Source: an uncultured Alphaproteobacteria bacterium
GTDB taxonomy: Bacteria; Pseudomonadota; Alphaproteobacteria; RF32; CAG-239
Length of the DNA: 60,724 nt
NCBI GenBank assembly: GCA_944392865.1
Contig: CALXYD010000004.1
Location: forward strand, 1 to 60,724
Direction of reading: 5' to 3'
In this document: piece after piece, positions 4,014-46,018 of the stretch
Layout of the letters: every line of letters starts with the position of its first letter
How positions within the stretch are numbered: position 1 is the stretch's first letter
The notes under the pieces: model-generated
The model's input: only the letters and a program-made list of their open reading frames with translations
Databases searched by the model: none
Told to the model about the DNA's origin: nothing
Made by a program: the position numbers and the translations under genes

Positions 4014-7000
4014 TTAGTATAACGGCGGTATTCCTTCCACTTCTTCCGATAATTCATCCTCGCTCGGTGGAACACCGGTTATTGAGCCATCGGCTGCCGG
4101 CGGAGGAAGCGCGCCTGTGTTATTTTGGCCTGTATTTCTCCGTTGATTATTATTTTGCGGTTCTTCGCTTATTAGCGGAGTTCCACCACCGCCACTGTTA
4201 TCTTGATTAGAAGTTCCTCGGTTACTCTGGCCTCCAAGAATAACTTTCCTGCTACCACCACCATTATTGCTCTCAACAGTTGATGTAGTGGTTGTTCCTG
4301 TTCCACCGCCAACGACTTCTTCTGTAACTAATCCGCCCTGTCCGGAGCTTGGAATATCCGTCGCAACGCCTCTTTCAATATCTTTGGTGCTTCTTAGCCA
4401 CAAATCTCGCATCGGATATATGATAATTCTGGTACCTGCCGGAATATACGTTACGGATTGAATTTGCGATTTGCTGTCAATAATCTGTTGCAGTATCTGA
4501 TCCATTTTATCCATAAACTGTTGACGCGCATCAGAAGCCGCTTGTTGTTTTGAATTTTCAACTTCTCCCGTGCTTTCTTCATCAACAGCCATCATATAGG
4601 TAATGGCTGAGCTTGCCAGAGTTCCGACAATCGGCAATGTATATTTTTTAACTAACTGTTCATCAACATAACCAAGCGCGCCGCCGCCCCGTCCTTGCGC
4701 ATCGCCAGTTTGTGATGTTCCGGCATCCAAAATAAAAGCTATGCCATCCGGACGGATAATTCTCGACCAGGCGATTTCAAGTTTCACGCCACCGCTGGTA
4801 CTATCAAACCGATCTTCACCGTCAATGTCTTGCAAACCGCCAATAATACGGCTTCCGGCAGGTATAATTACATTTCTCCCCGTATCACCGTATATATTCC
4901 GTTCAACAATCGCTGTAACCGGAGCAGAACCAAAGGAAATCAGCGAACGCGCCATTACGGCAGGAATCGGTTTATCCGCAGTAATCATATTGTCCATATT
5001 TACACGCAAAGTTGAAACGGCGCGGGGAATACCCCAATCATCCTGCCAGCCGGTATAAGAGGCAGCGTTAAAGCCCGGTGTAACAACTGCCGCGGCCATT
5101 GTTTGACGACGCTCATTTTGCAGCTGAGCCAAAATTGCAGCGCGTTGCGGATTATATCTGCCACCAGGTCCGATACCTCCGCCCGGTCCGACAAAGGTTG
5201 CTTCATCTGTATTATCATAAGGATTTATTGTTGTGTTCCTAACCACCGCATCAATCCACCTAGCCCTAGTATTGGCTCCTAGCGTATCCTGAACTTGAGG
5301 TTTTTGTAATTGCCCGACAGTATTTCCATCGTTATCAATAACTTCCCCGTTTTCATTTACACGACCGATAGTTTCCCCGTTATCGTCTACAACTGTATTA
5401 TCGCCCAGAACATCGCCGATAATGTTTCCGCCCGGCGTTACGGCTATGCCAAGAAATCCCCTATTTCTTCTCTGTTCAATCAACGCCTCATCTTCCGGCG
5501 TTTCCTCTGGCGCATCGGCCGCACTTTCAATCTCTTCGTTTTCATTTATCATTTCCGTGGCAGCCGGTTGGTCATCAGATGAGCTTTCTTCATTATTTTG
5601 GTTTTTATTATCGCCTGTTTTTTCCTCGTTTTCTTTTTCTCTATCTGATTCTGACTGTTCATCCTCATCTTCCGGCTCAGCAGGGCGTTGATAATATTGC
5701 AGGCGTTCCGCTTTGGCTATGATATTCCCGCCGGCATTTTTTATATCGCCGTTAGGTTGCAGCTGTCCGACCTCAATGTTTTTGACATCTAAAACAGATC
5801 CGTCCAGTTTAAGGTGGCCGATAATCTCATGCGCGGCATTTCTTATTTCATAATCCCGGGCGCCTCGTCCGATTAAATTTTGTTTTTTATCAACAACGAA
5901 TCCATTGTAGATTGTTCCTTTCATCTCGCCCATAATGCTATAAACACGTCCGTTTTTCGCAATATAGCCGATGGTTTTTCCATCGTTGTCATATACATAT
6001 AAGTCATACAAAGCAAAGCCGTTTTTACTTCCCTTTATAACAACTTCGCCATTATATTGGACGATACCCAAGATTTCGCCGGCATCCGAAACGACTCTTC
6101 CGTCCGGTTTAACCCGCCCGAGATACACGTTATTACTGTCAAAGGCTACCGTATATTTAAACGGGACGCCAACATTTTCTCCGTTTTTAGCAAGAATACT
6201 GCCGTCAATATCACGAACGGCAATTTGCACACCGGAATTATCAACAACGTTACCATAGAAATCCGTATAACCGATAATTTTATTATTAAATCCCATAATC
6301 GGCGTATATGATATTGTCTGGCCGACAATTTCTTTTTGAGGGTTGCGTACCAGACCATCGGCACCTACACACCCCATATTTTGATTAGAATAGTTTAGGA
6401 CATTTCCCAGCGGGCCAGATATACCGAGCATCTCTCCTTTTTTACCGCTAACTGCCTGAGGAACAACAATATGGCCGATTACATTTTCAGTTTCATTCAT
6501 TATCTGCCCATTAGTTAAGACCATCCCCAGGTATGCACCGGCGGATGTTCTGGCTTCACCAGAATCAGAAACGACGCCTAAAAACTTACATTCCGGCGAG
6601 ACTACGGCACCGAGAGGCGCGGCACCGCCGTATAGTGCACCCATATTGTCCAGAGCGTTGCCATTAGAACTTATTTTGCCGATATTTTCCGTTCCATCGA
6701 CAATTTTTCCATCCAAAAGATTATAGCCGAGATAATCGCCGTTAATACTTACGCTGACAGGGGAAGCACCTGCTCGTCCGTATATTTCCGTATTTTTTCC
6801 TGACAGCCCTACGGCGTTACCGTCCGGCAAAATTTTAGCGATTTTCTGATCCCGCATATTGACCACTTGATAAACCGGCGTAACGAATCCCAATGTTGCC
6901 CCTTCAAAATTGGTAACATACTTGTCTTCAATAACTTTTCCCAGCAGCTTATTATTTTTATCTAAGAACATACCGGATCCGGTTAACTTGGCAATTTCAT

Positions 7001-8387
7001 TTAAGGAAGAATTTTCCGTTTGTCCGTTTCCGGTGGTGTATGACAGCATATTCCCTTCGGCTGAAAATATATGCCCCAAGGGATAGTTTCTGCCATTTAA
7101 ATTTCCGGTTTCATCATAGACATAGCCATACGGCGATGTTTTATAAACTTTTCCATTAAACGGGAGTATGGAATTTATACCGCTAACTCCGATAAATTCA
7201 TTAGAGTTGTTAAAATTCAGACGCGCATCCATTATCCGTCCCAACTGGTTGCCATTGGTATCAAAAGCACTCTTTTGTACCATTTGCCCCAAATCAACCC
7301 CTTCCAATGATACAACCCGTCCGCCTACGGCTGCATTTGCTTTAAGCTCGCCTAAATAATCAAAAACCGGACCTTCGGCATTTATAACACCGACAACTTC
7401 GCCTTTTTCATTGACGACATTGCCGGAGGCTCCGATTTTTCCTACGATGTTCCTTCCGCGAGCAATCTCTCCTTTTGCCGTAATCCGGCCTAAGTATTTT
7501 CCTTCCAATGTATTGGCCGTAGCAGACAGACTTACGGTAAAACCGATAACCTTGCCATCTTTATTTATAACGCGTCCGCCATTAACGGCGCGGGCAATAG
7601 TCGCCCCTTTATCGGTAACTTCTCCGTTATAACTGACAACGCCAATATATTTTCCATCAAGATTAAAGGCATAGCCGCTCTCTGCCACCTGCCCGATGAT
7701 TTTTCCATCGGCAGCATAGACGAATCCGTTGGCGTGAATATTTCCGACTGTTTTTTTATTTACATCAATGACTTTTCCGTCCGGGGCAATACTGCCCAAG
7801 AATTTGCCGGTTGACGAAACAACGATTTTAGAAGTAATCAGTCTGCCTGCCAATGCGACTTTACGGTCAGTTCCAGCGGTAAAGACATAGCCGGAAGCGG
7901 TTACATATCCCGTATTCTCGCCGACTAAATTATAAAACCGTCCGTCACCGGATACTCTGCCGGTAATCTGCCCGGCATCGTCATAAACAAGCCCCGGAGA
8001 AACAACAGCGCCCAGAATATCATAGTTATCATTTACGACCAAGCCGTTCGGCAAAACTTTTCCTACCAACGTATCATTTACGGCCGTTACGGAACCGTCA
8101 TTGCTGACTTTACCCAAAATGCTGTTATTATAGGAAATCGCAACGCCCTGAGGCACAACGCCGCCAATGATATTTTTCTCATCGTTATAAACAAAGCCGT
8201 CTGCGGTTATATGGCCAATTAATTCATTGTCAAAATTGATAACCGTGCCGTCGGGAATAACCTTTCCGATTAAATCGCCGTTAAAATTAAGCGCGCTCAT
8301 ATCGGCGGCGATTGCTCTGGCGGCAATCCCCATCAAAACGATTAAGCTTGTGATAAATCTGCTTAATTTTAACTTGTTAATGTGCAA
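4014..8387 (-). CDS. virB10: Giant VirB10/TrbI-domain protein with ~900-aa N-terminal beta-hairpin repeat region
   Basis: C-terminal TrbI motifs (IPAVMARSL, VERNIYGDTGRNVIIPAGSRIIG, IAWSRIIRPDG, DAQGRGG..GYVD, IPAGTRIIIYPMRDL). N-terminal signal-like peptide, GxVxxxxGxxIG repeats and an acidic linker. TTG start with GGAGG RBS. Confidence 0.9.
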   Translation of the reverse strand: MHINKLKLSRFITSLIVLMGIAARAIAADMSALNFNGDLIGKVIPDGTVINFDNELIGHITADGFVYNDEKNIIGGVVPQGVAISYNNSILGKVSNDGSVTAVNDTLVGKVLPNGLVVNDNYDILGAVVSPGLVYDDAGQITGRVSGDGRFYNLVGENTGYVTASGYVFTAGTDRKVALAGRLITSKIVVSSTGKFLGSIAPDGKVIDVNKKTVGNIHANGFVYAADGKIIGQVAESGYAFNLDGKYIGVVSYNGEVTDKGATIARAVNGGRVINKDGKVIGFTVSLSATANTLEGKYLGRITAKGEIARGRNIVGKIGASGNVVNEKGEVVGVINAEGPVFDYLGELKANAAVGGRVVSLEGVDLGQMVQKSAFDTNGNQLGRIMDARLNFNNSNEFIGVSGINSILPFNGKVYKTSPYGYVYDETGNLNGRNYPLGHIFSAEGNMLSYTTGNGQTENSSLNEIAKLTGSGMFLDKNNKLLGKVIEDKYVTNFEGATLGFVTPVYQVVNMRDQKIAKILPDGNAVGLSGKNTEIYGRAGASPVSVSINGDYLGYNLLDGKIVDGTENIGKISSNGNALDNMGALYGGAAPLGAVVSPECKFLGVVSDSGEARTSAGAYLGMVLTNGQIMNETENVIGHIVVPQAVSGKKGEMLGISGPLGNVLNYSNQNMGCVGADGLVRNPQKEIVGQTISYTPIMGFNNKIIGYTDFYGNVVDNSGVQIAVRDIDGSILAKNGENVGVPFKYTVAFDSNNVYLGRVKPDGRVVSDAGEILGIVQYNGEVVIKGSKNGFALYDLYVYDNDGKTIGYIAKNGRVYSIMGEMKGTIYNGFVVDKKQNLIGRGARDYEIRNAAHEIIGHLKLDGSVLDVKNIEVGQLQPNGDIKNAGGNIIAKAERLQYYQRPAEPEDEDEQSESDREKENEEKTGDNKNQNNEESSSDDQPAATEMINENEEIESAADAPEETPEDEALIEQRRNRGFLGIAVTPGGNIIGDVLGDNTVVDDNGETIGRVNENGEVIDNDGNTVGQLQKPQVQDTLGANTRARWIDAVVRNTTINPYDNTDEATFVGPGGGIGPGGRYNPQRAAILAQLQNERRQTMAAAVVTPGFNAASYTGWQDDWGIPRAVSTLRVNMDNMITADKPIPAVMARSLISFGSAPVTAIVERNIYGDTGRNVIIPAGSRIIGGLQDIDGEDRFDSTSGGVKLEIAWSRIIRPDGIAFILDAGTSQTGDAQGRGGGALGYVDEQLVKKYTLPIVGTLASSAITYMMAVDEESTGEVENSKQQAASDARQQFMDKMDQILQQIIDSKSQIQSVTYIPAGTRIIIYPMRDLWLRSTKDIERGVATDIPSSGQGGLVTEEVVGGGTGTTTTSTVESNNGGGSRKVILGGQSNRGTSNQDNSGGGGTPLISEEPQNNNQRRNTGQNNTGALPPPAADGSITGVPPSEDELSEEVEGIPPLY

Positions 8388-8388
8388 A

Positions 8389-11300
8389 TCAGTTCCTCCG
8401 ATTTTGAGCGACTTCGTCTAACACATATCCAGCCACCTGGTTTTTACCGTTCACATACGAACCGTTACTTTTCAGATAGCCTATCCGGCCGTTAGTCAGG
8501 CTAAGGACACGGCCGTCAGGAGCCAAGCGCCCAAAATATTTCCCGTCATTTCCCAGTATATTAGCACCTATTTTATAGGTATGTCCCATAATTTTTCCAT
8601 TGTTATCTACAACTAAATTAGAAGAAATAACTTTACCAATAACGGAATGCTCAAAGTTCAGGGCTTTTCCTTCAGCATTTATATAACCGATGACTTTATC
8701 TTCATCGCTAATGATGATATCTCCTTCAATGATTTCGCCTATCAACACACCTTTATTATTGACGGCTTGCCCTGTGCTCAAAATTCGGCCAATCGGCTGG
8801 TTGTCGGTGGATATAATGCTACCATCCGGTGCAACCTGCCCAATGACGTGTCCGGAATAATTCAAGATAACACCTCTTTTTAAGACGCTGTAATTTTTAT
8901 TAGATGCGCCTCCCGGCAAAACCGTCGTCTCTATTTTATCATCAATTCCGATAATATCGCCCAGAGCATTGAGATACCCTTTTACATTTCCCTGCACGTC
9001 AATAACAATATTTTCCTCAATGACTTCGCCGACCAATTGCTTATTTTTATTCAATACATGGCCATCAGCGCCGACATAACCGCTCAAATTGCCGTCGACA
9101 TCAATAACCGTTCCTTTTTTGCTGACATAACCTAAATACGAACCATCATAGCCAATTCCTACCCCCGTGCGGACTATTCCCCCTTTGTAGTTTCCTTTTT
9201 CATCAAACATCCGCCCTTTGGCATCAATTTGCCCGAGCTCCGTTCCTAAAACGTCTATCACTTTGCCATTATCATTAACCAAGCCGATATAATTTCCGTT
9301 CATATCAACGACATTTCCTTTGGGTAGCAGCCGACCGGTTTTGCGTGCATAAAATCCGCTTCCGTCATAGACGAATTTATCTACGGCAATTCCCTGCTGA
9401 TTATAGACATATCCGTCCGCAAACATGTGCCCAATAACCTTGCCATTGGCGTCTACGATAATGTTCTTTTCCGGCAGCAGAACACCTTTGATTTCCTTTT
9501 TGGGATTTACCAACAAGCTACCCAACAATATTTTTGTATTCGGAATTACCGCCGTGCTGTCATAACCAAAAGGCGACAGGTTATTAACAAACTCTCCCTC
9601 CAGCGTATAGGCCTGAGTTTTATCAACAACTTCACCAATGATAAAGCCGTCTTTATTCAGGATTTCCCCTTCAAAATTAGCACATCCGACGGCTGTATTG
9701 CCAGATTTGACAATACCGTCATTACCGACAATGCCCATCATCTCTCCGTTATAGTATAGTGCATACGCCGGTTCATGAACTTTTCCGACAACTTTGCCGT
9801 CCGGGTTCAGAACACTGCCATCCGGATTGACGCACCCCACATATCCTCCGTCATTGTTGCGAACATATCCGTCTTGTCCGGCTTTGCCGATGATGTTACA
9901 CTTTTCATCTCTTACCCAGCCGATTTTAGCAATATCACCAGCATAGTCGCCGTTGCTGTCAACGATACTGCGGTCAAAGAGCATACGATATTCGGTATTT
10001 TGACCGTCTTTCTTTACTCTGGCATCTCTATCCACATAACCTAATTGTTTACAGCCCCACCCGACGGCAAGTCCGCCGATAACCGTTTTTCCGATAATAT
10101 TATCGCCTTCAGCGGTGCGTATTAAAGATGACGGCAGCACCTTTCCGATAACTTCGTTTTTGTTGTTTACCACTTCCCCTCGGTTATTTATGGCTCCCAG
10201 GCTATATCCGTTCGGCGACATCGGTATCATATCTTTCTTTATGACAGCGCCGATTTTTATACCTCGTGAAGTGATAACATTGCCTTCTTCGTCCAGATAA
10301 CCAATTACTAAACCATCCGCATTATAAACTTTTCCATCAGCCCCGACATAACCGATAACATTGCCGTTTTCGTCAACAGCAAGGTTGGCATATCCGCCGA
10401 CAGTTCCGACCACCCGGCCATTTTCATCTATCGTAAATTCCGTATAATCCCCGATGCGTCCGATAATATTGCCGTTTGCGTCTTTTATGGTTCCGTCTTC
10501 CTGCAGTTTGCCGATAACCTTGCCATTTAAATCATAGGCGATACCATTTTCATCGACATAACCAATCACATTTCCATTTTCATCCAGAATTGCCCGGCGG
10601 CGGACAACTTGCAAATTGCCATCGCCATCTTCGGCAAGACGTCCGATTACCTCGCCATCTGTTCCGTAAACAGTGCCGTCAGCCGCAACGAATCCTATTG
10701 TTTTTCCATCGTTACCGATAACCCGACCCTTGTCGTCTACATAGCCGATAATATTTCCGTTTTCATCTACGACAACTTTTGCCATATCTCCGGCCTTGCC
10801 GATGATATTGCCGTCTTTATCGTGTATCGTGCCATCTTCCCCGAGATAACCGATTAAATTCCCGTTGAAATCCCTGACCGTGCCATCGTCATCTATGTAG
10901 CCGATAACATTACCGTTTTCATCCAGCGCCAACCTCTTTTTTATGTCGGCTTTGCCCAAAACTTCTCCGGTCAAACCAACGATATTGCCATTCTCATCAA
11001 CAAAACCCAAAAGTTCGCCGTTCTCTTTATAAACATTTCCGTCTTCGCCGATATAGCCGATAACATTGCCATTTTCATCTACCGCAAGTTCAGCCATTTT
11101 TCCCACTTTGCCGATGACACGCCCATATTGGTCGGTTATTGTTCCGTCCGGATTGGCTTTACCGATGATATTGCCGTTAAAGTCCCGCACATTTCCGTCT
11201 TCATCAACATAGCCGATAACGTTACCGTCTTTGTCGTATGCCAGCCGGCCGACTTTTCCGGCCGTTCCGATTATCTCTCCCGTGTTGTTCAGAATATTGC

Positions 11301-14300
11301 CGTTTTCATCAACATAGCCTATCGTATTGCCGTTAAAATCTTTAACAGAGCCGTCTTCGTCTATGTAACCGATAATATTGCCATCTTTATCATAAGCCAG
11401 ATTTTTTGCGTCACCGACACTTCCGATTATCTTGCCATCGACTCCGACAATATTTCCATCCTTGTCAACAACGCCTATGACATTGCCATTCTCGTCAATT
11501 ACCCGGCCATTCTCATCAACATAGCCAATAATATTGCCGTCTTTATCATACGCAAGTTTATGCTCCAATCCGGCTTTACCGATAATATTGCCGTCTTTAT
11601 CAACAATATTTCCGTCTTTATCAAGTTTACCGATAATATTTCCCTTAAAATCTTTAACCGTTCCATCCGGCTCAATATACCCGATGACTTTACCATTCTT
11701 ATCCAGAGCCAGTCGCCGCCCTTCGCCAATTTTACCGATAATTTCTCCATTAGCGCCGATGACATTACCATCTTTGTCGACATAGCCGACAACTTTTCCA
11801 TCCGGACCAATAACATTACCGTTTTCATCAACATAGCCGATAACGTTACCGTTTTTATCATAAGCAAGCTTTACGCTTTTACAAGCGGTGCAGATTATTT
11901 CGCCGACGGCAATAACTTCGCCTTTTTCGTTAACATAGCCAATGAGTTTGTTTTCTTTATCATAGGCAAAATTATTTGCCTTCATAAAGCCGATATGCTC
12001 GTTGCCATTGTTACGCAGCGTTTTATTATCCTTATCCAACCGCCCGATAATATTATGTTTGGCGGCTAAAACATTGCCTTTTGCGTCAACAAGTCCGATG
12101 ACTTTGTTTTCATTTCCGCGAACATAGTTTTTATCATCAACATAACCGATTATCATTTTGTCGGCGTTACTGACGACATTTAACATCACACCGGTTTTGC
12201 CAGCCAAGCGGCCGCGGGAATCGATAATATCCGTCCCTTTTCTCTGTCCTATAACCTTTCCAGAAAAGTCTTTAACAACATTTTTATCGTCAACATAACC
12301 TATTATTCCCTTTCCTTGCGTGCCATAGGCAACTCTTTTGCGAATACACGTCCTGCCGATTTTTTTGTCGCCGGCTTTGATTATATTGCCATTTTTATCA
12401 ACAAAGCCGATTATATTTCCTTTTTCATCTTTTACCCGCCCGTGTTCGTCAATATAACCGATAACATTGCCATTTTTATCCATCGCGACTCGATTGAAAT
12501 CCCCGGCTTTACCAATAATCCGCCCTTTGGTATCAACAATAGTCCCGTCTGCGGTCATTTTACCGATTAAGTTGCCTTTGAAGTCTTTAACCGTGCCATC
12601 CGGCGTCACATATCCTATAACATTGCCGTCTTTGTCATACGCCAAGCGCTTATAATTGCCGGCGCTCCCCAGAACTTCTCCGCTAGAGGCTATGATATTG
12701 CCGTTTTTATCAACCACGCCGATGATTTTGCCATCACAGTCAATAACTCTCTTTTTATCATCTATATATCCGATAAACACACCTTTGGAATTAAAGGCTA
12801 TTTCCTTTGTCTCTCCGACTTTGCCGATGACTTTGCCGCTTTTATCTACAACGTTGCCATTTTTATCGGCTGTACCCAAAGTTACGCCGCCGCACCCCTT
12901 AACAGTACCGTCAGAATCGACGTATCCGATAAATTTACCATTCAAATCATACGCCAACGGACGCGATGTTCCTGCTTTGCCGATTACTTTTCCGTTTGTA
13001 CCGATAATTTTCCCGTCGGCATCAACAAACCCTAACAGCTTTCCGTCCTTGCCGATAACGCGCCCATTTTCATCAACAATACCGATAACATTGCCGTTTT
13101 TATCATACGCCAATGTTGCATAATCGCCGGCTTTGCCTATTTTACGGCCGTTTTTATCAATAATTTCGCCTTTATCGTTGACCTTACCGATGATATTGCC
13201 CTCAAAATCAACAACGTTTCCGTTGTCATCTATGTAACCTATCGGTTTACCGTCTTTTCCTAAAGCAATCCGCTTACGGGCAACGCCGCTCTTGTCCTGT
13301 CCGGCTTCAATTATGTTGCCGTTTTCATCTACGGTTCCTATCAGCTTGCCATTTTTATCAAATACCCGCCCCTGCTCGTCTATGTAGCCGATTACTTTGC
13401 CATTTTTATCTAATGCCAAGCGACGGGTGGCGCCAGCTTTGCCAATTATTTTTCCGTTTTTATCAATGATATTTCCGTCTTTATCAACTTTGCCGATAAT
13501 GTTTCCGTCAAAATCCCTGACTGTTCCGTCCTTGTCAATATATCCGATAACATTGCCGTCTTTGTCCAAAGCCAAACGCCGACTGGCGCCGACTTTGCCG
13601 ATAACTTTCGGTTTATTTCCGTCTTTGGAAAACTTTACAACTTTACCATTTTCATCAATGTAACCGATGGCTTTGCCGTCTTTATCATAAACAATTTTCC
13701 GACTCTCGCCGTTTGCACCGATTTTTTCTTCTTCAACGCGGTAAACATTGCCGTTTTCATCAACATAGCCAACAATATTTCCGTCTTTATCCACCACGCT
13801 GTTATCCGGCATAACAACCCCAAGAACATTGCCGTTTTCATCAACAACGATATTTCCGGAAGACGTTACTTTTCCGATAACATTGCCGTTTTCATCCACG
13901 ACTTCGCCGTTTTCATTCAACCGGCCAATTACTTTTTTGGGGTCATTTATATCAACAACCGTTCCGTCAGGTAAAACGCGGCCAATAATTTTTCCGTTTT
14001 CATCATATACGAATCCGGCTTCTACGGCTTTGCCGATAACTTCGCCTTTGCTATTGACGATTGTCCCGTCCGGTAATGCTTTTCCGATAACTTCCCCTTG
14101 CAGGTCAACAACCGTTCCGTCTGTTTTGACATATCCGATAATGTTTCCGTCTTTATCATAGGCTAATTTCATATTTTGGGCAACACCGATGATATTTCCG
14201 TCTGCGTCAACAATCAGGCCGTCTTCATTAACTCTACCGATAATGTTGCCGTCTTTATCATGCACATTTCCGGCTTCATCAATATAGCCGATAATTTCTC

Positions 14301-14982
14301 CGTTCGGCCCGATAGCTAACCGATGCGCACCGACACCGCCGCTACCAATGGCGCACCCCGACGAAGCATCACATATCTGTTGAGAATCATCGGGAAATAC
14401 CGCACTACCTTTAATACTGACTTCTTCTGATTTTGCGCTTGATTCATCTAATCTTGTTTCATACCAGATAATTTTGAAATTGTTTTGCACATTGCCGGGG
14501 AAATGCGGCGTCCAGGAGATCAGCACATTACACGTTTCATCACCGCGCAAATCGCGATTGCGGCACTTATCCCTGAACTCAAAACCGTCTTCCGTTTCTT
14601 CTACCAATTCAACCCGGACAATATGGATACTTTCGCTGCCATCCGTACCGATAGTCAAAACACTCTGATTTTGCGTGTCTACGCCCAAAATAAACCGATT
14701 CATATTTATTTGCGAAGGCGTTACTTTTATGGGTTTTGCTCTTTCGGTAAAACCGGTTTCTTCCGTTTCTATAATTACAGGCTCTTCGGCAATAGACACA
14801 TCCGGAAGAATATCTTGATTTTCCACAAAATCCGGGGTGTTTTCTTCCGGGTTATACTGCTTAACTTCGGTGGAGATAATCAATAACCCAAACAGGAAGA
14901 AAAGCCCGGAAATAATTCCGATTATCAGAATTATCTTTCGGGTTTTTCTTTCATATTCTTCAAAACGGGTATTTTCGTTCAT
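8389..14982 (-). CDS. ~2197-aa membrane-anchored protein: N-terminal TM, Ig-like (ASH/choice-of-anchor-D-like) domain, ~1950 aa of beta-hairpin repeats
   Basis: Start re-placed at ATG 14982, giving an ATGA overlap with the virB9 stop. TM KIILIIGIISGLFFLFGLLII; CRNRDLRGDETCNVLISWTPHFPG Ig-like signature; very many DxxGxxIGxV units. Lies between virB9 and virB10. Confidence 0.85.
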   Translation of the reverse strand: MNENTRFEEYERKTRKIILIIGIISGLFFLFGLLIISTEVKQYNPEENTPDFVENQDILPDVSIAEEPVIIETEETGFTERAKPIKVTPSQINMNRFILGVDTQNQSVLTIGTDGSESIHIVRVELVEETEDGFEFRDKCRNRDLRGDETCNVLISWTPHFPGNVQNNFKIIWYETRLDESSAKSEEVSIKGSAVFPDDSQQICDASSGCAIGSGGVGAHRLAIGPNGEIIGYIDEAGNVHDKDGNIIGRVNEDGLIVDADGNIIGVAQNMKLAYDKDGNIIGYVKTDGTVVDLQGEVIGKALPDGTIVNSKGEVIGKAVEAGFVYDENGKIIGRVLPDGTVVDINDPKKVIGRLNENGEVVDENGNVIGKVTSSGNIVVDENGNVLGVVMPDNSVVDKDGNIVGYVDENGNVYRVEEEKIGANGESRKIVYDKDGKAIGYIDENGKVVKFSKDGNKPKVIGKVGASRRLALDKDGNVIGYIDKDGTVRDFDGNIIGKVDKDGNIIDKNGKIIGKAGATRRLALDKNGKVIGYIDEQGRVFDKNGKLIGTVDENGNIIEAGQDKSGVARKRIALGKDGKPIGYIDDNGNVVDFEGNIIGKVNDKGEIIDKNGRKIGKAGDYATLAYDKNGNVIGIVDENGRVIGKDGKLLGFVDADGKIIGTNGKVIGKAGTSRPLAYDLNGKFIGYVDSDGTVKGCGGVTLGTADKNGNVVDKSGKVIGKVGETKEIAFNSKGVFIGYIDDKKRVIDCDGKIIGVVDKNGNIIASSGEVLGSAGNYKRLAYDKDGNVIGYVTPDGTVKDFKGNLIGKMTADGTIVDTKGRIIGKAGDFNRVAMDKNGNVIGYIDEHGRVKDEKGNIIGFVDKNGNIIKAGDKKIGRTCIRKRVAYGTQGKGIIGYVDDKNVVKDFSGKVIGQRKGTDIIDSRGRLAGKTGVMLNVVSNADKMIIGYVDDKNYVRGNENKVIGLVDAKGNVLAAKHNIIGRLDKDNKTLRNNGNEHIGFMKANNFAYDKENKLIGYVNEKGEVIAVGEIICTACKSVKLAYDKNGNVIGYVDENGNVIGPDGKVVGYVDKDGNVIGANGEIIGKIGEGRRLALDKNGKVIGYIEPDGTVKDFKGNIIGKLDKDGNIVDKDGNIIGKAGLEHKLAYDKDGNIIGYVDENGRVIDENGNVIGVVDKDGNIVGVDGKIIGSVGDAKNLAYDKDGNIIGYIDEDGSVKDFNGNTIGYVDENGNILNNTGEIIGTAGKVGRLAYDKDGNVIGYVDEDGNVRDFNGNIIGKANPDGTITDQYGRVIGKVGKMAELAVDENGNVIGYIGEDGNVYKENGELLGFVDENGNIVGLTGEVLGKADIKKRLALDENGNVIGYIDDDGTVRDFNGNLIGYLGEDGTIHDKDGNIIGKAGDMAKVVVDENGNIIGYVDDKGRVIGNDGKTIGFVAADGTVYGTDGEVIGRLAEDGDGNLQVVRRRAILDENGNVIGYVDENGIAYDLNGKVIGKLQEDGTIKDANGNIIGRIGDYTEFTIDENGRVVGTVGGYANLAVDENGNVIGYVGADGKVYNADGLVIGYLDEEGNVITSRGIKIGAVIKKDMIPMSPNGYSLGAINNRGEVVNNKNEVIGKVLPSSLIRTAEGDNIIGKTVIGGLAVGWGCKQLGYVDRDARVKKDGQNTEYRMLFDRSIVDSNGDYAGDIAKIGWVRDEKCNIIGKAGQDGYVRNNDGGYVGCVNPDGSVLNPDGKVVGKVHEPAYALYYNGEMMGIVGNDGIVKSGNTAVGCANFEGEILNKDGFIIGEVVDKTQAYTLEGEFVNNLSPFGYDSTAVIPNTKILLGSLLVNPKKEIKGVLLPEKNIIVDANGKVIGHMFADGYVYNQQGIAVDKFVYDGSGFYARKTGRLLPKGNVVDMNGNYIGLVNDNGKVIDVLGTELGQIDAKGRMFDEKGNYKGGIVRTGVGIGYDGSYLGYVSKKGTVIDVDGNLSGYVGADGHVLNKNKQLVGEVIEENIVIDVQGNVKGYLNALGDIIGIDDKIETTVLPGGASNKNYSVLKRGVILNYSGHVIGQVAPDGSIISTDNQPIGRILSTGQAVNNKGVLIGEIIEGDIIISDEDKVIGYINAEGKALNFEHSVIGKVISSNLVVDNNGKIMGHTYKIGANILGNDGKYFGRLAPDGRVLSLTNGRIGYLKSNGSYVNGKNQVAGYVLDEVAQNRRN
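10450..13580 (-). repeat. Degenerate intragenic tandem repeat, 156-bp (52-aa) unit made of three ~17-aa subunits
   Basis: Consecutive units such as KLAYDKDGNIIGYVDENGRVIDENGNVIGVVDKDGNIVGVDGKIIGSVGDAK are 52 aa long. CTTTATCATA occurs at 11385 and 11541, 156 bp apart. Boundaries approximate. Confidence 0.85.
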
Positions 14983-17051
14983 TGCACTCTGACCACGCTG
15001 CAAAAGATTCCGTTACGTCCTAACTGGCTGCAGATATTATCTCCTTCCTCCAACGATTTGACCGGCCCTACGCGAAGGTGAAAGACCTCTTTTCCTTGTC
15101 CGTCGGCGGGCGTATCTACGGAATAGAACGGTTGGTATCTGCCAATTGTAGCCGAGTAATTTTTGGAAATATCGTTCCATAATTTTTCCAGATTATTGAC
15201 ATCCTCGTCCGTTCCCAATTCAATAGATATATTGCTGTCATTTACACTTTCAAAAACTTTCCCGTTACGAAATTCTTTCAGAAGTTCTTCCATTTCGGCA
15301 GTTAAGACCGTATTACCACCCTCAATATCTTCTTTAGGCGTAATCAATATCGGGCTGGAGTTATTTACAGAACCACCCATGGTTGGCGTATTGCTATTCG
15401 GCACGTTCGCAACATTATTTGTTGTTGCGGCGTGAGGCTGTTGAGTGTTGCCGCTTTTATTACCACTACCGGCAGATATGCCGTTTGCCCCACTCCCGGC
15501 TGAAGTTTCCGTTTGCGTATTTGTCGGAGCGGAAGGAATATTTATTCCCGGCGCCGGAGCAACAACCGGTGCAACTTTAGGCATAGAGTTAAGCATTGTT
15601 TCATCATTAAGGCTTGCGGAAGCAGCCGATTGCCCCATTGTCTTTGCGCCATTGCCTACACTATTTCCAACATTATTTCCATTAGCGCCTGCGTTATTGT
15701 ATCCGCCGTTGACAACATTGTTTCCTCCCTGGTTGTCGTTATTTTGCCTGAAATTTCCATTTCTCATGCCTGAATTATTTGCCGGCGGCACGGCACGTTG
15801 GCCGCTGATTATATCTTCATAACTTAATCCGCTATCTTCCGTTGCCGATCTGTTTGATGAACCGGCAAACGTATTATTGCCAAAGAAACCGACATTTGAG
15901 GATGAGCCTTTGCCTGATGCTTGTCCGCTATGACCATTTGTTCCGCCGACACCATAAACATCTTCATATTCGCCATCCGAACCATCTCCGGGTTGCGAGG
16001 CATAGGCATTTTGTAAATCCCATTCGTTTGTTTTGGCATAAATCGTATTTTCCAACCCATCCGAATCGGCGCGACGCAATTTTAAGCAGACAATTCTCTT
16101 TCCGCTACGCAACACCATATCCCCCATACCTTCAACAATTATCAGACGGTTATTGGGGCCGGCGGTGCGGAAACCTACCGGTGTTTCGGAACGTTCAACA
16201 ATCAGGGTTACAATCGGGCGCTGAATAGCCGTCAAAGCTTTATCGCCCAAGTCTATATAGGTAAATATGTTATCACGCCAAACACGTTCCGGGGCTATGA
16301 TTATATCGTCCGGATTTGGGACATACACTTCTATATCAAAACGGAATTTTGTCGGGTCAACAGGGATTTTTTCAATCCAGTCCTCTTTTTGAAGATTGCG
16401 CGTAAAGGTAGCATCTTCGCTACTTCCATCTGCGCTGTAATCGTTTGCGTTAAGATGACCGCCTCCGGCTCCTCCGCCCATGACGTCGGAAATTCCACCG
16501 CGTTTTTTTACAACCTCTATATCAATTATTGCATTAGTAATTCTGTCGGTATTAACAGTTTCGCTTTGAACATAGAACACATATTTGTTCCCGGAGCGAC
16601 CGAAGACAATCATATTGGTATCAACGCCGACAAACTGCGACGAATCAGGATAAACCAACAGGCTGGACGGCCCTTGTATTTCCGCGTTAAATGATTGGCC
16701 ATCACCGATATATACATTTTCAATTACTTCCCAACTCGGAAAATTGATGAGCGTATACATTCCTTCACGCACTCTTACCGGCAGAACAAGATCAGGCGTC
16801 CAATAATATTTGGTATATCCCGGCCGTGTCTGCCCTTCACCCATGTGTTGCAAAGGGTCTTTCCATGCGCTTTGCATCATTCCCAACGACCCCACGCCGC
16901 CTAAATAATTCAAATTTGTTGCCGCATAATTCCCCTGGCTCTGGTCAGCATTTTGATCCAGATTATCCTTAGTAACTTGCGCCAGAGCCACGTTTGCAAC
17001 CAGAACAGAAGCCAGAACCGTCAGAAAAAAGATATTCGCTATTTTTACCAT
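14979..17051 (-). CDS. virB9: VirB9/TrbG outer-membrane core protein fused to a C-terminal SPOR domain
   Basis: Signal peptide; VirB9 N-domain (VRVREGMYTLINFP..E.I..VYIGD, DTNMIVFG); C-domain (APERVWRDNIFTYID, MVLRSGKRIVCLK); Asn/Gly-rich linker; SPOR-like tail (IELGT...FHLRVGPVKSLEEGDNICSQLGRNGIFCSVV). Confidence 0.88.
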   Translation of the reverse strand: MVKIANIFFLTVLASVLVANVALAQVTKDNLDQNADQSQGNYAATNLNYLGGVGSLGMMQSAWKDPLQHMGEGQTRPGYTKYYWTPDLVLPVRVREGMYTLINFPSWEVIENVYIGDGQSFNAEIQGPSSLLVYPDSSQFVGVDTNMIVFGRSGNKYVFYVQSETVNTDRITNAIIDIEVVKKRGGISDVMGGGAGGGHLNANDYSADGSSEDATFTRNLQKEDWIEKIPVDPTKFRFDIEVYVPNPDDIIIAPERVWRDNIFTYIDLGDKALTAIQRPIVTLIVERSETPVGFRTAGPNNRLIIVEGMGDMVLRSGKRIVCLKLRRADSDGLENTIYAKTNEWDLQNAYASQPGDGSDGEYEDVYGVGGTNGHSGQASGKGSSSNVGFFGNNTFAGSSNRSATEDSGLSYEDIISGQRAVPPANNSGMRNGNFRQNNDNQGGNNVVNGGYNNAGANGNNVGNSVGNGAKTMGQSAASASLNDETMLNSMPKVAPVVAPAPGINIPSAPTNTQTETSAGSGANGISAGSGNKSGNTQQPHAATTNNVANVPNSNTPTMGGSVNNSSPILITPKEDIEGGNTVLTAEMEELLKEFRNGKVFESVNDSNISIELGTDEDVNNLEKLWNDISKNYSATIGRYQPFYSVDTPADGQGKEVFHLRVGPVKSLEEGDNICSQLGRNGIFCSVVRVQ

Positions 17052-17069: not shown

Positions 17070-17840
17070 TTAATTTGTTTTACGTTCAACCTGTCTGTAA
17101 TCCAACACCGTGAACCCCAGCGGATTTTTCAAGCGTTCGCCGAATCTTACCTTTTTGGCGCGATACATTATCTTTACAGAAGCTACCCAAACACTCAATC
17201 GCGGCGTTTCATATTCCGGCATCATATCTTCCACCCTAAATTCCACCTGCCACCAGGTTTCGCCCTTAGCACCGCCAACTTCGGTTACTGATGATATTTT
17301 TATATTACGCGTTATATTATGTTTTCTTATCAACTCCAACGCCGCATCGGCAAAATTTTTACGAAAGCTGTCATACACGCCGGTTGATGACATTTCTTGT
17401 ATCGTGCTGCCGGTTCCCCATCTTCTTTCCATCTCATCAATATCGTTTACGAGCGTATTGCGGAGCAAGATGTATTCACGCACAAATATCTCGGTCAAAT
17501 ATTTATGGTCGTAAATATTTTTTACCGGTTCAATTCTGTATATCTGGTCTTTTTTATCAGAAAAGCTGAACAAATACGGTTCAACACGGTAAAGCGGCAT
17601 AATAGCAAAAATAACGTAGGTCAAAATAAGATTGCAACACATACTCACGGCAAAGATGATTGCAAAAGCACGCGCCGTCCACAAATATCTCTTCTCCGTT
17701 GAGTTCTCTACCACGACATCTGCGTTGCGGCGGCGCTGAGCCCGCGCAGCGGCACCTGCCGGAGATGTCGGATGTCCGCCTTTTCCCTCAAGCAGCAGTT
17801 TTTTTGTTTTATCTGAAGATATTTGTTCCTGTCCGGCCAT
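17070..17840 (-). CDS. virB8: VirB8 family protein (copy adjacent to virB9)
   Basis: Single TM followed by MPLYRVEPY, FVREYILLR and C-terminal NPLGFTVLDYR. Confidence 0.9.
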   Translation of the reverse strand: MAGQEQISSDKTKKLLLEGKGGHPTSPAGAAARAQRRRNADVVVENSTEKRYLWTARAFAIIFAVSMCCNLILTYVIFAIMPLYRVEPYLFSFSDKKDQIYRIEPVKNIYDHKYLTEIFVREYILLRNTLVNDIDEMERRWGTGSTIQEMSSTGVYDSFRKNFADAALELIRKHNITRNIKISSVTEVGGAKGETWWQVEFRVEDMMPEYETPRLSVWVASVKIMYRAKKVRFGERLKNPLGFTVLDYRQVERKTN

Positions 17841-17856: not shown

Positions 17857-18045
17857 CTAGCTCAGAGCCACAAACCAATCCGGCAGAGTTTTAGGCAATT
17901 CAACCTCTATACAGGCGCACGGCGACAGTTTTAATTCATATACATCCTTACCAATTCCGACAGGTTCCGGCTCATAATAATCGCCAATCAAACTGCAAGC
18001 GGCTAAAACAACTACGGCGAAAGCCAAAATTAAAGCTTTATACAT
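17857..18045 (-). CDS. virB7: Small lipoprotein, probable VirB7
   Basis: 62 aa, lipobox LAAC, later SPCAC; lies between two virB8 genes; GAGAGGGG RBS. Confidence 0.7.
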   Translation of the reverse strand: MYKALILAFAVVVLAACSLIGDYYEPEPVGIGKDVYELKLSPCACIEVELPKTLPDWFVALS

Positions 18046-18189: not shown

Positions 18190-18948
18190 TTAAATGTCTA
18201 TTTCACTTTGGAAATAACTGTAAACGACAAAACCCAACGGATTTAACAGGCGACGGTAGGCCGTCCTGCGCCCGGGATCAACATAGCCACGAATATTCGC
18301 CGTCCAATACCTTTCCGTGATAACCGGCGTTACATCGCTCTTTCGGCTTATAAAATCGCTTTTAAATGTGTAGTCATAGGTTTTAAATTCTATCTTCCAG
18401 GTATTACTTTTTTCACCGCCGGTTCGTTCCACCGAAAGGATTTCCACCGAGCGGCTTGAATTATTTTCGGTCATTTCTTTTTGCAACAGCGGATAGACTT
18501 TTTCAAATTCTTTATACACATCATAGGTTGACAGATAGGATACAAGACCACCCCACAGCCAGCGATTGTTCATTTCCCTTTCGTCTTTAATATAAGTGTT
18601 GCGGAGCTCAACATATTGTTTCATAAAATTGACCATCATCTGCTCACGCGACTCCATCCAATGGTTAATATACTCCCTTTTTACAATGGATTTGGAATCG
18701 GATAGCACCACATACATCTGCGGATCAATCATTATTTCCGGTGCCAGTTTTTGAATAGCAAATGTTGTGCAGACGCCATATAAAAGGGAGCAAGTCGCAA
18801 GCAAGGCCATCAATCTCGCAATCCATTTATAGTAAACCATTTTTGCCCGACGTACTTCTACCACATCTTCGGTAATAAACTCCGGGGCTTCCCTTGTCTT
18901 TCCTTTATCGGTCAGACGGAGAATTTTCTGGTTTGCGATATTTGCCAT
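18190..18948 (-). CDS. virB8: VirB8 family protein (second paralog)
   Basis: Single TM, FMKQYVELRN, RSVEILSV, W.IEF and C-terminal NPLGFVVYSY; alignable by eye with 17070-17840. Confidence 0.85.
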   Translation of the reverse strand: MANIANQKILRLTDKGKTREAPEFITEDVVEVRRAKMVYYKWIARLMALLATCSLLYGVCTTFAIQKLAPEIMIDPQMYVVLSDSKSIVKREYINHWMESREQMMVNFMKQYVELRNTYIKDEREMNNRWLWGGLVSYLSTYDVYKEFEKVYPLLQKEMTENNSSRSVEILSVERTGGEKSNTWKIEFKTYDYTFKSDFISRKSDVTPVITERYWTANIRGYVDPGRRTAYRRLLNPLGFVVYSYFQSEIDI

Positions 18949-18971: not shown

Positions 18972-21900
18972 TTAGTAAACCGGACAGTAGGCGACGGCCT
19001 GGCTTTGATTGTCCATAGACATCAAGCCCTCTTCTTCAGCTGTTCTTACTGCCGTTTTGTTGATTTCAGCCTTTTCGGCGGCTTCCGCTGCGGAAGCACC
19101 TGTCGCATCCGGCTGAATGGTGGCTAATTCATCCGGATCGCCTGCTCCATCCTCTCCATCTACCGGTGCGCCAAGGGCAGCAAAGTAGTTTTCAATTTTA
19201 TTCAGGCGTTCCTGAACGCGATCTTTATCGGTCTCGTTAATTTCAAGGTTATTATACCCGGCGTGTTCGCCAAGTTCATCGCTATAACCCTGTTTTGCTT
19301 TACGAATCGCTTCATTTTTCAGTTCGTCAAGTTTACAGAAAATCTGGTCATAGTATGAACCGTCTTCGTTTTTCATCCCGCAGCTAACACTATAGACATC
19401 ATCTGATGAATCTTTTGCCAAACCGCCATTTTCCATAATCAGCTGGGCACATTCAGCAGCTTTTGCATTGACGCATTCGCTATCGGATGTATCTTCGCAA
19501 AGTTCTTCGCCGCTGACACTCTCGCCAAGATTATGCATTTGCTGGCATAAGTTCTCCAGAGCGTCGATAACATCTTCTTTGTTGTTATCCAGGGTCTTTT
19601 CGGCATTGCGCTCTGCATTCACCGCCTCCAGGAACGAACCGATAACATTGCGCTTAAACGTTGCTAAGTCGGCGAGTTGGCGTTTTATGCTGTTCTCCTG
19701 ATTTTCATCGTTCAGCAGATAGTCATAGATGTTACGCAACATAGGACGATATTCCAAGTTACCATTTAGGAATTGTCCGAGTTCGCTGTATTTCTCATAC
19801 ATCGGTTCATCCGTGCTGCCCAAACCGTCTTGCAAGGCCTTGGAATCGTCATCATCAAGTGGATTATGGTCTGCCAGCAACTGGCGCACACCACTTTTGT
19901 GATTAGCGACTTCCTGACAGGTCTGCACCGTTGCGCCGGACGGTATGGAGCTACGCTGTTTAAAGCTCATATCGCCAACACCATCGCCACCACCAACATC
20001 AATCACTTTGTTAGAGCTGATGTTTACAATCTTGCCTTTGTTATCCTGTTTACCAAGTTTGCACGGATATACGCCGGCTCGCCCTATAATCGCGCGGTAG
20101 TGGGATTCTTCCGCTCCCGGGATATCGGCATTGTTGATGTAATCTTTCAGCTTTTCCCTACCGTAAGAGCGCTCAACAAACGTCTGCTGATACAGCCCAT
20201 CCTTGCGGAAGTTCGGTGTTGCTAACAAGTAACGCCAAGTTTCCGGCAGATACTCAATCGCTTCTGCAATCTCTATCGTTGTGTGCTTGTATTTTTTATC
20301 TACCAGCGTTGATGGAGACGGCTTGTTATCCTTCTTCGGCACATCGTCATAATCCATTGCGCTAAAGTAGAATACTTCTCTTAGCGGAGCCAGATTCAGC
20401 AACGGTTTGCGCGGGGCTTTGTAATCGCGGCCGTTGTTGCTGTCTACATCTTCGCTAATTGACGGTATCAGTTCTTCCTTCTGCTTACCAAAGGTCGGGA
20501 CGGTTATTGTATACAAACCGCGTGCCGGCAGGCCTACATAATAGTTATCGTCGGTGACTATATCTGCCGGAATACCAAAACTTTCTTCAAGTTTGATACC
20601 TGCCAAATCCAGTTTTGCCTGGTTTTCCGCCTGTTTCAGCTTTTCAATCAAGGCGTAATGCTCGGCTGTTACGGATTGTCCGCCGTTTGCCACTCCATCA
20701 TCGGCATAATTTTCGTGGATGTAGATTTCTTCGGACGGTTCGGTTCCTTCTTCGCCGGTTACACCCCATTTTTCCATAACGGCGGTAATCTCATCGGCGG
20801 CCGAATCGACTTCTTTCTTAATCGTCGTATCCGCGTCTTTGATATATTTATCCTTGATGAGCTCCATGGCGTCTTCTTTGACAATGTCTTTAAGTTTCAA
20901 GGCTATTGAGGCCGGCGTGTAAACGCCATCCGGAATACCCTCAGCCGCAAGAGCGCCGTTGGCAATGACAAATTTGTCTACTACGCCATTGCTTTCCAAC
21001 ATTGCCGGATACTGCCCCCATTTGCCGCCTGAGAACCAGCGTTCTTCAATACTATCCAGGATAATACCCTTCAAATCGCTTTGAACCCGAGCGTCGTCAT
21101 TAACGCCATCGTGGTCGTTTTTATCCACGGTACTGTATAACACGCGCGCCATTGTCCAGGACAAATTATCATACTTATAGTCATTTGTCTGATATTTATC
21201 TTTACAGTCTAAAACGCCGAGTCTCCGCTCTTTAGTGCACCACGGTCTGCGTGTGTTCTCCATACGCGCCGGGTCGCTAACATCGTTTTGGACTTCAAGT
21301 TTCTTTTCAAACAGCTCGTTTTCGGCCTCTATTTTTTCCTGCCATGCCGTTGCCTCTTTAATATAGGTATCGGCAAACGTTTGGGCATACTCGCGAATTT
21401 CTTCGCTTTTGGCATCTATTTTTTCCTGTTGAACATCAAGAAAACTCTGTGCATCATCCATCTCCTCTTGGGCTTCGGTGATGTCGTCTTCTGTATCCAT
21501 TACGTTCTCGAAAATCTTATCCACGTCCAAGCCTTCATACAATTCTTTTTGCATTTCATCTTTACTTTTTCCGGTCGCAACATTGCGCCAACCGTTGCAT
21601 TCGCTGATATTTTCCGGTGCATTCGCACAGAGGAAGGCCAATTCCTCTTTCATCGCCGGAATTATACCGATTATTTCCGCAAGGGTCGGATTTTTTATTT
21701 TTTCCAAATCTTCTCCCGCTCCTCTCAGCAAAGAATCCAAATCGTTTTGCAGGCTTTCCGGTTTCGGGTTGCGATCTTTTAATCTGGCTTCCAACGCCGG
21801 AACACGGACATTCTCAAGGTTATCCAAGTCTTTGACTAAACCTGAGATGTGTTCAATGGAGCGTTGGCGTTCCTGAACAAATTTATTTTTATCTTCCGTT

Positions 21901-39629: not shown

Positions 39630-39640
39630 GGGAATAAGCC

Positions 39641-42527: not shown

Positions 42528-42551
42528 TTTTAGGAATCCGGGTAAACAGAT

Positions 42552-44210: not shown

Positions 44211-44223
44211 GAGGTAATTGTAT

Positions 44224-45342: not shown

Positions 45343-45349
45343 TGTGACG

Positions 45350-46018
45350 ATGCTTTTTGATTATCCGCCATTGAAACGTATCTTTAACAAATCGGTTGCG
45401 TTTTGCGGTTCTGTAAAAATTACCGTTTGTCGTTATTATGACAAGCGTGAAGAGTATCTTTCCCGGCTCAAAGAATTTGTTGTAAATAAAAAAGAGTTAA
45501 TCCTAAAAGCCGGACTTCCCTTTTTGATTATTATTTTCGGCATTTACACCTGCTCCTCTTCACAAAAGGATATTACCCGCAATATTTCCGATATTTTTAC
45601 AATTGCCGAAGATATGCGCTCTTATTATGCCGATAAACCGGATTACTGGGGCTTGTCCACGGAATCGGTTTTGAAAAACAGGATTGTGCAAGGACGTTTT
45701 ATAAAGGGGAATAAGCTTGTTTTATCCGGCGGTTTAAATATTCTTGTCGGGCAAGGTCTCACGGCGGAAACGGTTATGCCCCGTTCTCAAACATTTGATA
45801 TTGTTGCGCCGGCTCTAACGAAAGCACAATGTATATCATACGCTGAATATCCTCTAACAAAAGAGCAATTGGTAAATATTGAACAAATAATTATTGGTAA
45901 TGACAGCCGCGAGATCAGCTTTACTTGGGGCGGCGAATATTCACTTCCGGTACAAACATATAAAACTAAAGATATTTGTGCAGAAGGAAAAAATACCGTA
46001 ATATGGACGTTAAAATAA
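45350..46018 (+). CDS. PilS-like type IVb pilin-fold protein with atypical leader
   Basis: Hydrophobic helix then YWGLS, GG..I.V, F.I....L.KAQC and C-terminal C..GKN, the two-Cys pattern of PilS-like pilins; follows pilR. No clear Gly(-1)/Glu(+5) site and the start is uncertain. Confidence 0.6.
   Translation: MLFDYPPLKRIFNKSVAFCGSVKITVCRYYDKREEYLSRLKEFVVNKKELILKAGLPFLIIIFGIYTCSSSQKDITRNISDIFTIAEDMRSYYADKPDYWGLSTESVLKNRIVQGRFIKGNKLVLSGGLNILVGQGLTAETVMPRSQTFDIVAPALTKAQCISYAEYPLTKEQLVNIEQIIIGNDSREISFTWGGEYSLPVQTYKTKDICAEGKNTVIWTLK

Follow-up and report, generated by a model that had tools for sequence, protein, structure and literature searches.

A type IV secretion machine has to pass through the cell wall, and to our knowledge no dedicated wall-binding module is known on the core channel of type IVA systems. 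A gene from an uncultured alphaproteobacterium (GTDB lineage Alphaproteobacteria; RF32; CAG-239) raises the question of how such a channel might be held in the wall. The gene lies on contig CALXYD010000004.1 of assembly GCA_944392865.1, of which we analysed positions 1 to 60,724 (60,724 nucleotides, hereafter the window). It encodes a protein of 690 amino acids in which a VirB9 core is followed by a low-complexity linker and a C-terminal SPOR-fold domain. The fusion is an inherited core feature of the order, and the glutamine with which SPOR domains typically contact glycan is replaced in it by glutamate. With a probability of roughly one half, we read the tail as a multivalent, non-covalent peptidoglycan tether of the outer-membrane core complex of the type IV secretion system (T4SS), with weakened or altered glycan specificity.

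A VirB9 protein that continues past its C-domain

The gene and its parts are listed below in window coordinates (aa, amino acids of the encoded protein).

14979..17051, minus strand: whole gene VirB9-linker-SPOR, 690 aa plus stop (open reading frame list and translation; Pfam CagX and SPOR)
16977..17051, minus strand: signal-peptide-like N-terminus, aa 1-25, hydrophobic, ending ...VALAQ (read from the translation)
16083..16814, minus strand: VirB9/CagX core, aa 80-323 (PF03524)
15996..16082, minus strand: conserved segment just past the VirB9 C-domain, aa 324-352, KLRRADSDGLENT...WDLQ (alignment A1)
15297..15995, minus strand: low-complexity linker, aa 353-585 (composition, model)
15231..15296, minus strand: short helix ahead of the SPOR domain, aa 586-607, ...EELLKEFR... 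(AlphaFold models)
14982..15230, minus strand: SPOR-fold domain, aa 608-690, 83 aa (Pfam SPOR, model, structural matches)
15219..15221, minus strand: codon of E611, at the canonical glycan-contacting Gln position of SPOR domains (phmmer alignments, start of the structural alignment)

A single open frame encodes all 690 residues, from the VirB9 core through the tail, as seen in the open reading frame (ORF) list and the translation. The CagX/VirB9 profile PF03524 matches aa 80-323 with 48.7 bits (cut-off 34.2) and is also matched by 18 of 18 members of alignment A1. The gene lies between virB8 and virB10 on one strand. The protein thus shares with canonical VirB9/TraO/TrwF of P-type T4SS both a CagX match above the cut-off and the place in the operon. 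The NCBIfam VirB9 equivalog profile TIGR02781 reaches 34.1 bits, far below its cut-off of 217.7, so the protein is a divergent VirB9 relative and no equivalog of the Agrobacterium-type protein. A profile match to the VirB9 C-domain of PDB entry 6gyb is weak (E 0.18). In the full-length AlphaFold model, aa 2-19 form a helix, the VirB9 N-domain has a predicted local distance difference test score (pLDDT) of 78-88, and the C-domain is modelled with low confidence as a monomer.

An initial annotation, made from the letters of the window alone, had described a VirB9 protein fused through a long linker to a SPOR domain, and this description holds in nearly all its parts. The VirB9 C-domain ends with the motif IVCLK at aa 324, as it had stated, and the span that it assigned to the extension (14979-16060) comprises residues 331-690 and the stop codon, that is, everything past the VirB9 C-domain. 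Its statement that VirB9 normally stops there agrees with Xanthomonas VirB9 in 6gyb, which has 255 aa and ends after the C-domain, while the protein of the window has 366 further residues. The SPOR-like domain with paired cysteines, which it placed at about 14979-15240, is found at 14982-15230 with C674 and C684. The description of the linker as rich in Asn, Gly, Ser and Pro is accurate for Gly, Asn and Ser (38, 37 and 28 of 233 residues), which dominate, while Pro is modest (14 of 233).

The linker as a whole (aa 353-585) consists to 71% of N, G, S, P, Q, T and A, with 22 Ala, 17 Thr and 15 Val besides the residues already counted. In the full-length model aa 330-583 have a pLDDT below 40 and no secondary structure, and the roughly 280 residues between the VirB9 C-domain and the SPOR domain are predicted to be disordered. 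The short helix ahead of the SPOR domain is modelled at 585-595 in the full-length protein and at residues 4-10 in a separate model of the tail.

Conservation follows these boundaries. Across 17 homologues, mean identity is 85.0% in the SPOR part, 84.7% in the VirB9 core and 20.8% in the linker, where 27% of the positions are gaps. The segment just past the C-domain (aa 324-352) has 87% mean identity in A1, and the pre-SPOR helix (aa 586-607) has 50%. Several short islands are conserved inside the linker in A1 (YEDVYG, FF..N.F, the invariant pair P491-K492, and NNSSP.LI). Another island kept in most relatives, TGQYDVK...YNN, gives way to low-complexity sequence in the protein of the window.

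The tail has the SPOR fold

We conclude that the tail is a true SPOR-fold domain. The Pfam SPOR profile (PF05036) matches aa 618-688 of the protein with 20.6 bits (E 5.9e-4) in hmmscan, against a cut-off of 21. The same stretch scores 24.8 bits in a six-frame search of the genome, above the cut-off, and all 18 of the 18 homologues aligned match the profile too, with E-values of 0.01 or less (best 1.6e-5).

The last 105 aa were compared by phmmer with 1.84 billion representative proteins (E<=0.001), which yielded 135 hits. The nearest are VirB9 fusions or fragments of them, and CagX is present in 17 of the 135 (P0107, 13 proteins at a threshold of 1e-3 and 3 at 1e-5). Of the 134 hits scanned, 95 are non-VirB9 proteins with strong Pfam SPOR matches (42.8-117.9 bits). 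The majority of these have two or three SPOR copies, some together with ankyrin or TPR repeats, and true multi-SPOR proteins are reached from E 6.5e-12. Two metagenome proteins carry the VirB9-type SPOR tail joined to a ParA-like ATPase or to the C-domain of an acetolactate synthase small subunit (P0122 and P0130); we take both for probable chimeras of assembly or gene calling.

The tail was modelled with AlphaFold on an alignment of 28 sequences. Its elements follow the order beta-alpha-beta-beta-alpha-beta of the RNP-like SPOR fold, in which two helices pack on a four-stranded antiparallel sheet, with a pLDDT of 93 or more over residues 21-105; in the full-length model the SPOR domain has a pLDDT of 83-92. 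The top three Foldseek matches in the PDB are the SPOR domains of CwlC and RlpA, with modest E-values (1.9e-3 to 4.4e-3) and a TM-score to RlpA of up to 0.79. In VIA-align the model superposes on the RlpA SPOR domain (6i05/6i09) with Z 10.2 and a root mean square deviation (rmsd) of 2.0-2.1 Å over 75-76 residues. Further SPOR rows are those of CwlC (Z 8.0), DedD (Z 5.9) and DamX (Z 5.3), and the best row of a papillomavirus E2 DNA-binding domain has Z 6.7. Residues 85-166 of chain B in PDB entry 6ozd, a 'putative exported protein' of Burkholderia pseudomallei, also align (Z 9.9, rmsd 2.5, 78 residues), and this protein may hold an unannotated SPOR-like domain.

Sequence searches of the PDB did not return a SPOR entry. 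The tail alone gave nothing, a profile of short tails gave chance-level rows, and a profile that still held VirB9 columns gave a weak VirB9 match and nothing else. For this reason the link to SPOR needed Pfam, the large phmmer search and the comparison of folds.

The cysteines C674 and C684 are invariant in alignments A1 and A4. Every one of the 186 SPOR domains aligned from the hit set has the pair, although this set was selected by likeness to the query, and the pair is missing from the SPOR domain of the genome's own RlpA.

The fusion is inherited across the order

Of 8000 candidates scored in a word-index search, 1321 proved to be relatives at E<=0.001. The 120 among the matches listed are all 578-697 aa long and all have a near-invariant tail, of which the precomputed annotation recognizes a SPOR domain in only five. 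In the genus, 23 of 24 other genomes match. In the order, matches were found in 149 of 150 other genomes and in 20 of 20 genera, with the VirB9 part in open frames of mostly 515-690 aa; for most genomes the linkage of VirB9 and tail in the same frame was taken from these frame lengths, with the hits to the tail expected among 156 further matches. Most genomes of the order have two matched stretches. The exceptions are few: one genome has no match (G092), one has a single weak match (G042), one matches across two frames (G099) and one has a frame of 322 aa (G164). These genomes are small (1.3-2.0 Mb), and that of the window has 1.58 Mb in 87 contigs and is 97.9% complete. The VirB9 plus SPOR architecture proposed in the initial annotation is therefore real, and it sits inside a T4SS operon.

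Beyond the order, the fusion was detected in one of 15 sampled families of the class (G027, an ORF of 497 aa). It is also found at loci mostly titled Candidatus Enterousia or Alphaproteobacteria metagenome-assembled genomes from animal guts. Several close relatives of about 298 aa (about 45% identity, among 178 hits) had appeared to be tail-less. We rejected this reading, because the genomic frames run on into the tail: VirB9 and tail stand in one frame of 502-564 aa at 80 of the 80 loci retrieved with a shorter relative, so that the short proteins are truncated gene calls. Among the relatives and loci searched, we found no close VirB9 relative without the tail.

The VirB9-SPOR fusion is not described in the full-text literature that we searched, which does not cover subscription journals. 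The channel subunit itself carries a wall-binding-type domain, and the arrangement is kept in Candidatus Enterousia and throughout an order of gut Alphaproteobacteria that are uncultured and have small genomes.

The conserved glutamine is replaced by glutamate

One residue sets the tail apart from well-studied SPOR domains. According to the accessible portion of PMC6895207, Q270 of RlpA (equivalent to FtsN Q251 and DamX Q351) is the sole highly conserved glycan-contacting residue of SPOR domains. Through its amide it acts as hydrogen-bond donor to N-acetylmuramic acid, at the lactyl carboxylate, and to N-acetylglucosamine, at the N-acetyl oxygen. The basic patch R302, R309 and R311, with R285 as a residue of this patch in FtsN, makes the other side-chain contribution to glycan binding. 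In FtsN, as reported in the available part of a preprint (bioRxiv 10.1101/2024.05.13.594014), the change Q251E lowers septal localisation and the binding of denuded glycan, with an apparent two-fold drop; the same source also proposes glycan-independent SPOR-SPOR contacts. A comparative SPOR preprint (10.1101/2022.07.01.498525) holds nothing on the SPOR Gln in its accessible part.

In the tail of the window, the canonical strand-1 Gln is a Glu (E611), so that the protein naturally carries the FtsN Q251E-type change. E611 is residue 26 of the tail model; the structural alignment opens at model residue 22, which pairs with RlpA 266, and E611 thus pairs with Q270 if strand 1 is ungapped. In the phmmer alignments, Glu occupies this position in 135 of 138 VirB9-linked tails (Gln, Val and Asp occur once each), and the 143 other SPOR domains of the hit set have Gln in 107 and Glu in 30, of which about 13 are fragments of VirB9 tails; the proteins are mutually related, so that the counts do not stand for independent events. 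Gln is retained in the RlpA encoded by the same genome (contig C39) and in a membrane-anchored SPOR protein of that genome (contig C10).

The only VirB9-SPOR fusion in the examined set that keeps the canonical strand-1 Gln is P0147, a representative of 493 aa. Its composition, rich in Ala, Gly and Arg, suggests that it comes from a different, higher-GC lineage.

The rest of the binding face appears to be in part preserved. H658 and R660 (Arg at both positions in most relatives and in 80 of 80 Enterousia-type loci) fit the positions of RlpA R309 and R311 by sequence pattern, in a register set by hand and not by a computed alignment, which suggests that this part of the face is kept. Because Gln is Glu in almost the whole family while these strand-3 basic residues seem to stay, a weakened or altered glycan specificity is expected. 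The family thereby offers a natural experiment on SPOR domains: at the residue regarded as the key glycan contact, strong selection has put the same amino acid that laboratory work has used to make binding weaker.

The near-invariance of the Glu suggests function over decay and raises the possibility that the domain is tuned to a wall feature other than bare MurNAc-GlcNAc, for example a modified glycan, and that the machine is placed or gated by wall chemistry. Chemically, a Glu cannot donate the hydrogen bonds of the RlpA Gln, but some other group could serve as its donor or pairing partner. The proposal is pure inference and the bacteria are uncultured, and we regard it as very unlikely. A broader version, in which the Glu would mark a distinct 'E-type' class of SPOR domains reading either a modified glycan or the beta-flower arrays of a split VirB10 described below, and not denuded septal glycan, is put forward tentatively and as an unlikely case. 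Were it true, the secretion machine of these small-genome gut Alphaproteobacteria would be placed or kept in place by a kind of wall signal that has so far been described for no secretion system.

A proposed tether between the core complex and the sacculus

The design of the protein argues for a tether. Most SPOR proteins tie a small folded domain to an anchor through a disordered, low-complexity region (accessible portion of PMC6895207), and VirB9-linker-SPOR fits this usual design; it therefore supports the tether reading, with VirB9 as the anchor. The data show the architecture, the fold, the conservation and the change from Gln to Glu; we infer the periplasmic location, copy number, peptidoglycan binding and anchor role of the tail along the following lines. 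The type IV secretion machine is chromosomal and vertically inherited, and this gene encodes its VirB9 subunit, to which the whole tail of a SPOR protein has been joined, both the disordered linker and the SPOR domain at the C-terminus, so that VirB9 replaces the usual membrane anchor. With a tail on every VirB9 copy, a machine would have 14 tails if it is built like the solved core complexes; many tails per machine are expected because VirB9 is present in 14 chains in 6gyb. From the outer-membrane cap the tails would reach into the periplasm on flexible tethers of about 280 residues and would hold the outer-membrane core complex to the sacculus non-covalently and multivalently. Binding would come about through avidity instead of strong, FtsN-like septal capture.

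Several known proteins share parts of this arrangement. RlpA of Pseudomonas aeruginosa and E. coli, the best structural match of the tail, is likewise outer-membrane-associated with a C-terminal SPOR domain; it differs in its lytic transglycosylase domain and its canonical Q270, where the protein of the window has a VirB9 partner, a Glu and a Cys pair. In FtsN, DamX and DedD, too, an anchor is followed by a long low-complexity linker, and a SPOR domain makes up the C-terminus (PMC6895207, accessible portion). They are inner-membrane division proteins whose SPOR domain needs the Gln for septal localisation, whereas here the anchor belongs to an outer-membrane channel. In the Legionella Dot/Icm T4SS, the OmpA-like domains of DotK and Dis1 are peptidoglycan-binding modules of the outer-membrane complex (PMC9302130, available part). 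Both are separate proteins with OmpA-like domains and belong to a type IVB system; in the type IVA-like system of the window it is VirB9 itself that bears the fused domain, and this domain is a SPOR domain. Peptidoglycan-binding-type domains in T4SS outer complexes were thus already known. The VirB9 homologue of Helicobacter pylori, CagX, is also an enlarged VirB9 with species-specific extra parts, according to the abstract of PMC13417560, which does not mention a SPOR domain.

A wall-binding domain on an outer-membrane machine also has a precedent in type IVa pili, where the AMIN domains of the PilQ secretin are proposed to place the machine at division sites and poles. The AMIN domain has another fold, belongs to another machine and is experimentally backed, while the VirB9 tail is known from sequence and models.

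Several points weigh against a tether. The hmmscan SPOR score of the window's own protein is slightly below the cut-off, and the PDB sequence searches with the tail or its profile gave no SPOR entry. The VirB9 C-domain, past which the tail would leave the cap, is modelled poorly as a monomer. The pairing of E611 with Q270 comes from sequence alignments and the start of the structural alignment, not from a residue-by-residue structural printout. E611 also equals the change by which FtsN binds denuded glycan less well and localises less to the septum, and for this reason glycan binding by the tail may be poor or lost.

A possible septal capture and the wall enzymes of the genome

A true SPOR fold with its strand-3 basic residues could also act as it does in FtsN, DamX and RlpA, that is, by binding denuded septal glycans, in which case new machines would end at the new pole. 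Denuded glycans are made by AmiC-type amidases (PF01520), and it fits septal capture that 40 of 40 sampled relatives have one. A search of the assembly that holds the window did not find this amidase, and the likely cause is an assembly gap. The argument 'no AmiC-type amidase, hence no denuded glycan' was dropped on these grounds, and denuded glycans are probably made in this bacterial group. The genome further encodes an RlpA-type lytic transglycosylase with a Gln-type SPOR domain on contig C39, as well as the membrane-anchored SPOR protein and an Amidase_2 protein (the contigs concerned are C39, C10, C66 and C76).

The replaced Gln is where septal capture meets its main difficulty. The key contact is Glu in nearly all VirB9-linked tails while the RlpA and the membrane-anchored SPOR protein of the same genome keep Gln, a pattern that looks like selected divergence from the septal type. 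The drop caused by Q251E in FtsN is only about two-fold (bioRxiv 10.1101/2024.05.13.594014, available part), and a Glu-type domain could stay enriched at the septum, more so in multiple copies; the retained Gln of P0147 also fits septal capture. Taken together, we consider it distinctly unlikely for the protein of the window.

These results bear on what the initial annotation had proposed for the function of the tail. Of its two suggestions, a tether to peptidoglycan is reasonable, while targeting to the septum or new pole is weakened, because it relies on canonical denuded-glycan binding, whose Gln is Glu in these tails. It had further suggested that the tail perhaps compensates for a missing VirB1, and this idea is not supported. 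A search of the genome gave no SLT match on the window's contig, but on contig C66 it gave a frame with an SLT domain that is about as long as a VirB1 (220 aa), and RlpA lies on C39. The tail matches a SPOR binding domain and no hydrolase family in Pfam, so that compensation for VirB1 has no mechanistic basis.

The T4SS operon and a split VirB10

The VirB9-SPOR gene belongs to a T4SS operon on one strand, with the transcription order VirB4, four ORFs, an ORF of 1853 aa, VirB8, an ORF of 62 aa, VirB8, VirB9-SPOR, two beta-flower proteins and a VirB11-type ATPase. Its other features are as follows.

30962-33415, minus strand: VirB4
18972-24533, minus strand: 1853-aa ORF just upstream of the first VirB8, signal-peptide-like start, ending ...CPVY
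18190-18948, minus strand: first VirB8
17857..18045, minus strand: 62-aa lipoprotein-like ORF, candidate VirB7 analogue, lipobox-like ...LAAC in the translation
17070..17840, minus strand: second VirB8, directly upstream of VirB9-SPOR (PF04335, 66.9 bits)
14979..14982, minus strand: ATGA overlap, in which the TGA stop of VirB9-SPOR shares bases with the ATG of the 2204-aa beta-flower gene
8389..15003, minus strand: 2204-aa membrane-anchored beta-flower protein, front half of a split VirB10-like pair (Bflower_2, Bflower)
4014..8387, minus strand: 1457-aa protein with beta-flower repeats and a TrbI/VirB10 domain (PF03743, 99.3 bits)

The gene downstream of VirB9-SPOR encodes a giant repeat protein. 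A hydrophobic N-terminal segment is visible in its translation, and Pfam finds no TrbI domain in it; this domain is present in the protein of the following gene. The ATGA layout may couple the translation of the 2204-aa gene to that of VirB9-SPOR. A frameshift that splits one giant VirB10 was considered for the pair and rejected: the frames differ, but the second gene has its own GGAGG, a TTG start and a hydrophobic, signal-peptide-like leader. We read VirB10 here as two genes, not as one frameshifted gene. In the genome from outside the order that carries the fusion (G027), a single gene of 1273 aa combines the membrane segment, the repeats and the VirB10 domain.

The overlap with this giant repeat protein also bears on whether the SPOR fold now serves to bind a protein or to associate with itself. 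It might dock on the beta-flower repeats of the split VirB10, or build a ring beneath the cap, and peptidoglycan would then play no part. The loss of the canonical Gln would be expected in such a case, and so would the strong conservation of the domain, including polar residues of the sheet (S59 and D86 invariant, D61 nearly so, in alignment A3). However, Glu also occurs among the SPOR domains outside VirB9 proteins (30 of 143, with the share of VirB9-tail fragments given above), so that Glu alone does not mark a T4SS-specific protein interface, and SPOR proteins that bind the wall typically have such a long disordered tether. We judge this re-use to be unlikely, and continue to favour a tether to the sacculus.

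The four ORFs between VirB4 and the 1853-aa ORF match no family above Pfam's cut-offs, and the 1853-aa ORF (18972-24533) has no Pfam or NCBIfam match. An ORF of 922 aa that ends in ...CPIY lies at the same place in another genome (G025, L007 5007-7775). Two VirB8 paralogues (256 and 252 aa) flank the 62-aa lipoprotein-like ORF, which has a weak match to LPAM_1 (E 0.041).

Some 4 kb away from the T4SS operon, the plus strand carries genes for a type IVb pilus (window 36920-46018). This cluster comprises a TcpQ-like protein, a secretin, a PilO-like protein, a PilB/GspE-type ATPase, a GspF-type platform protein and a bundlin-like pilin.

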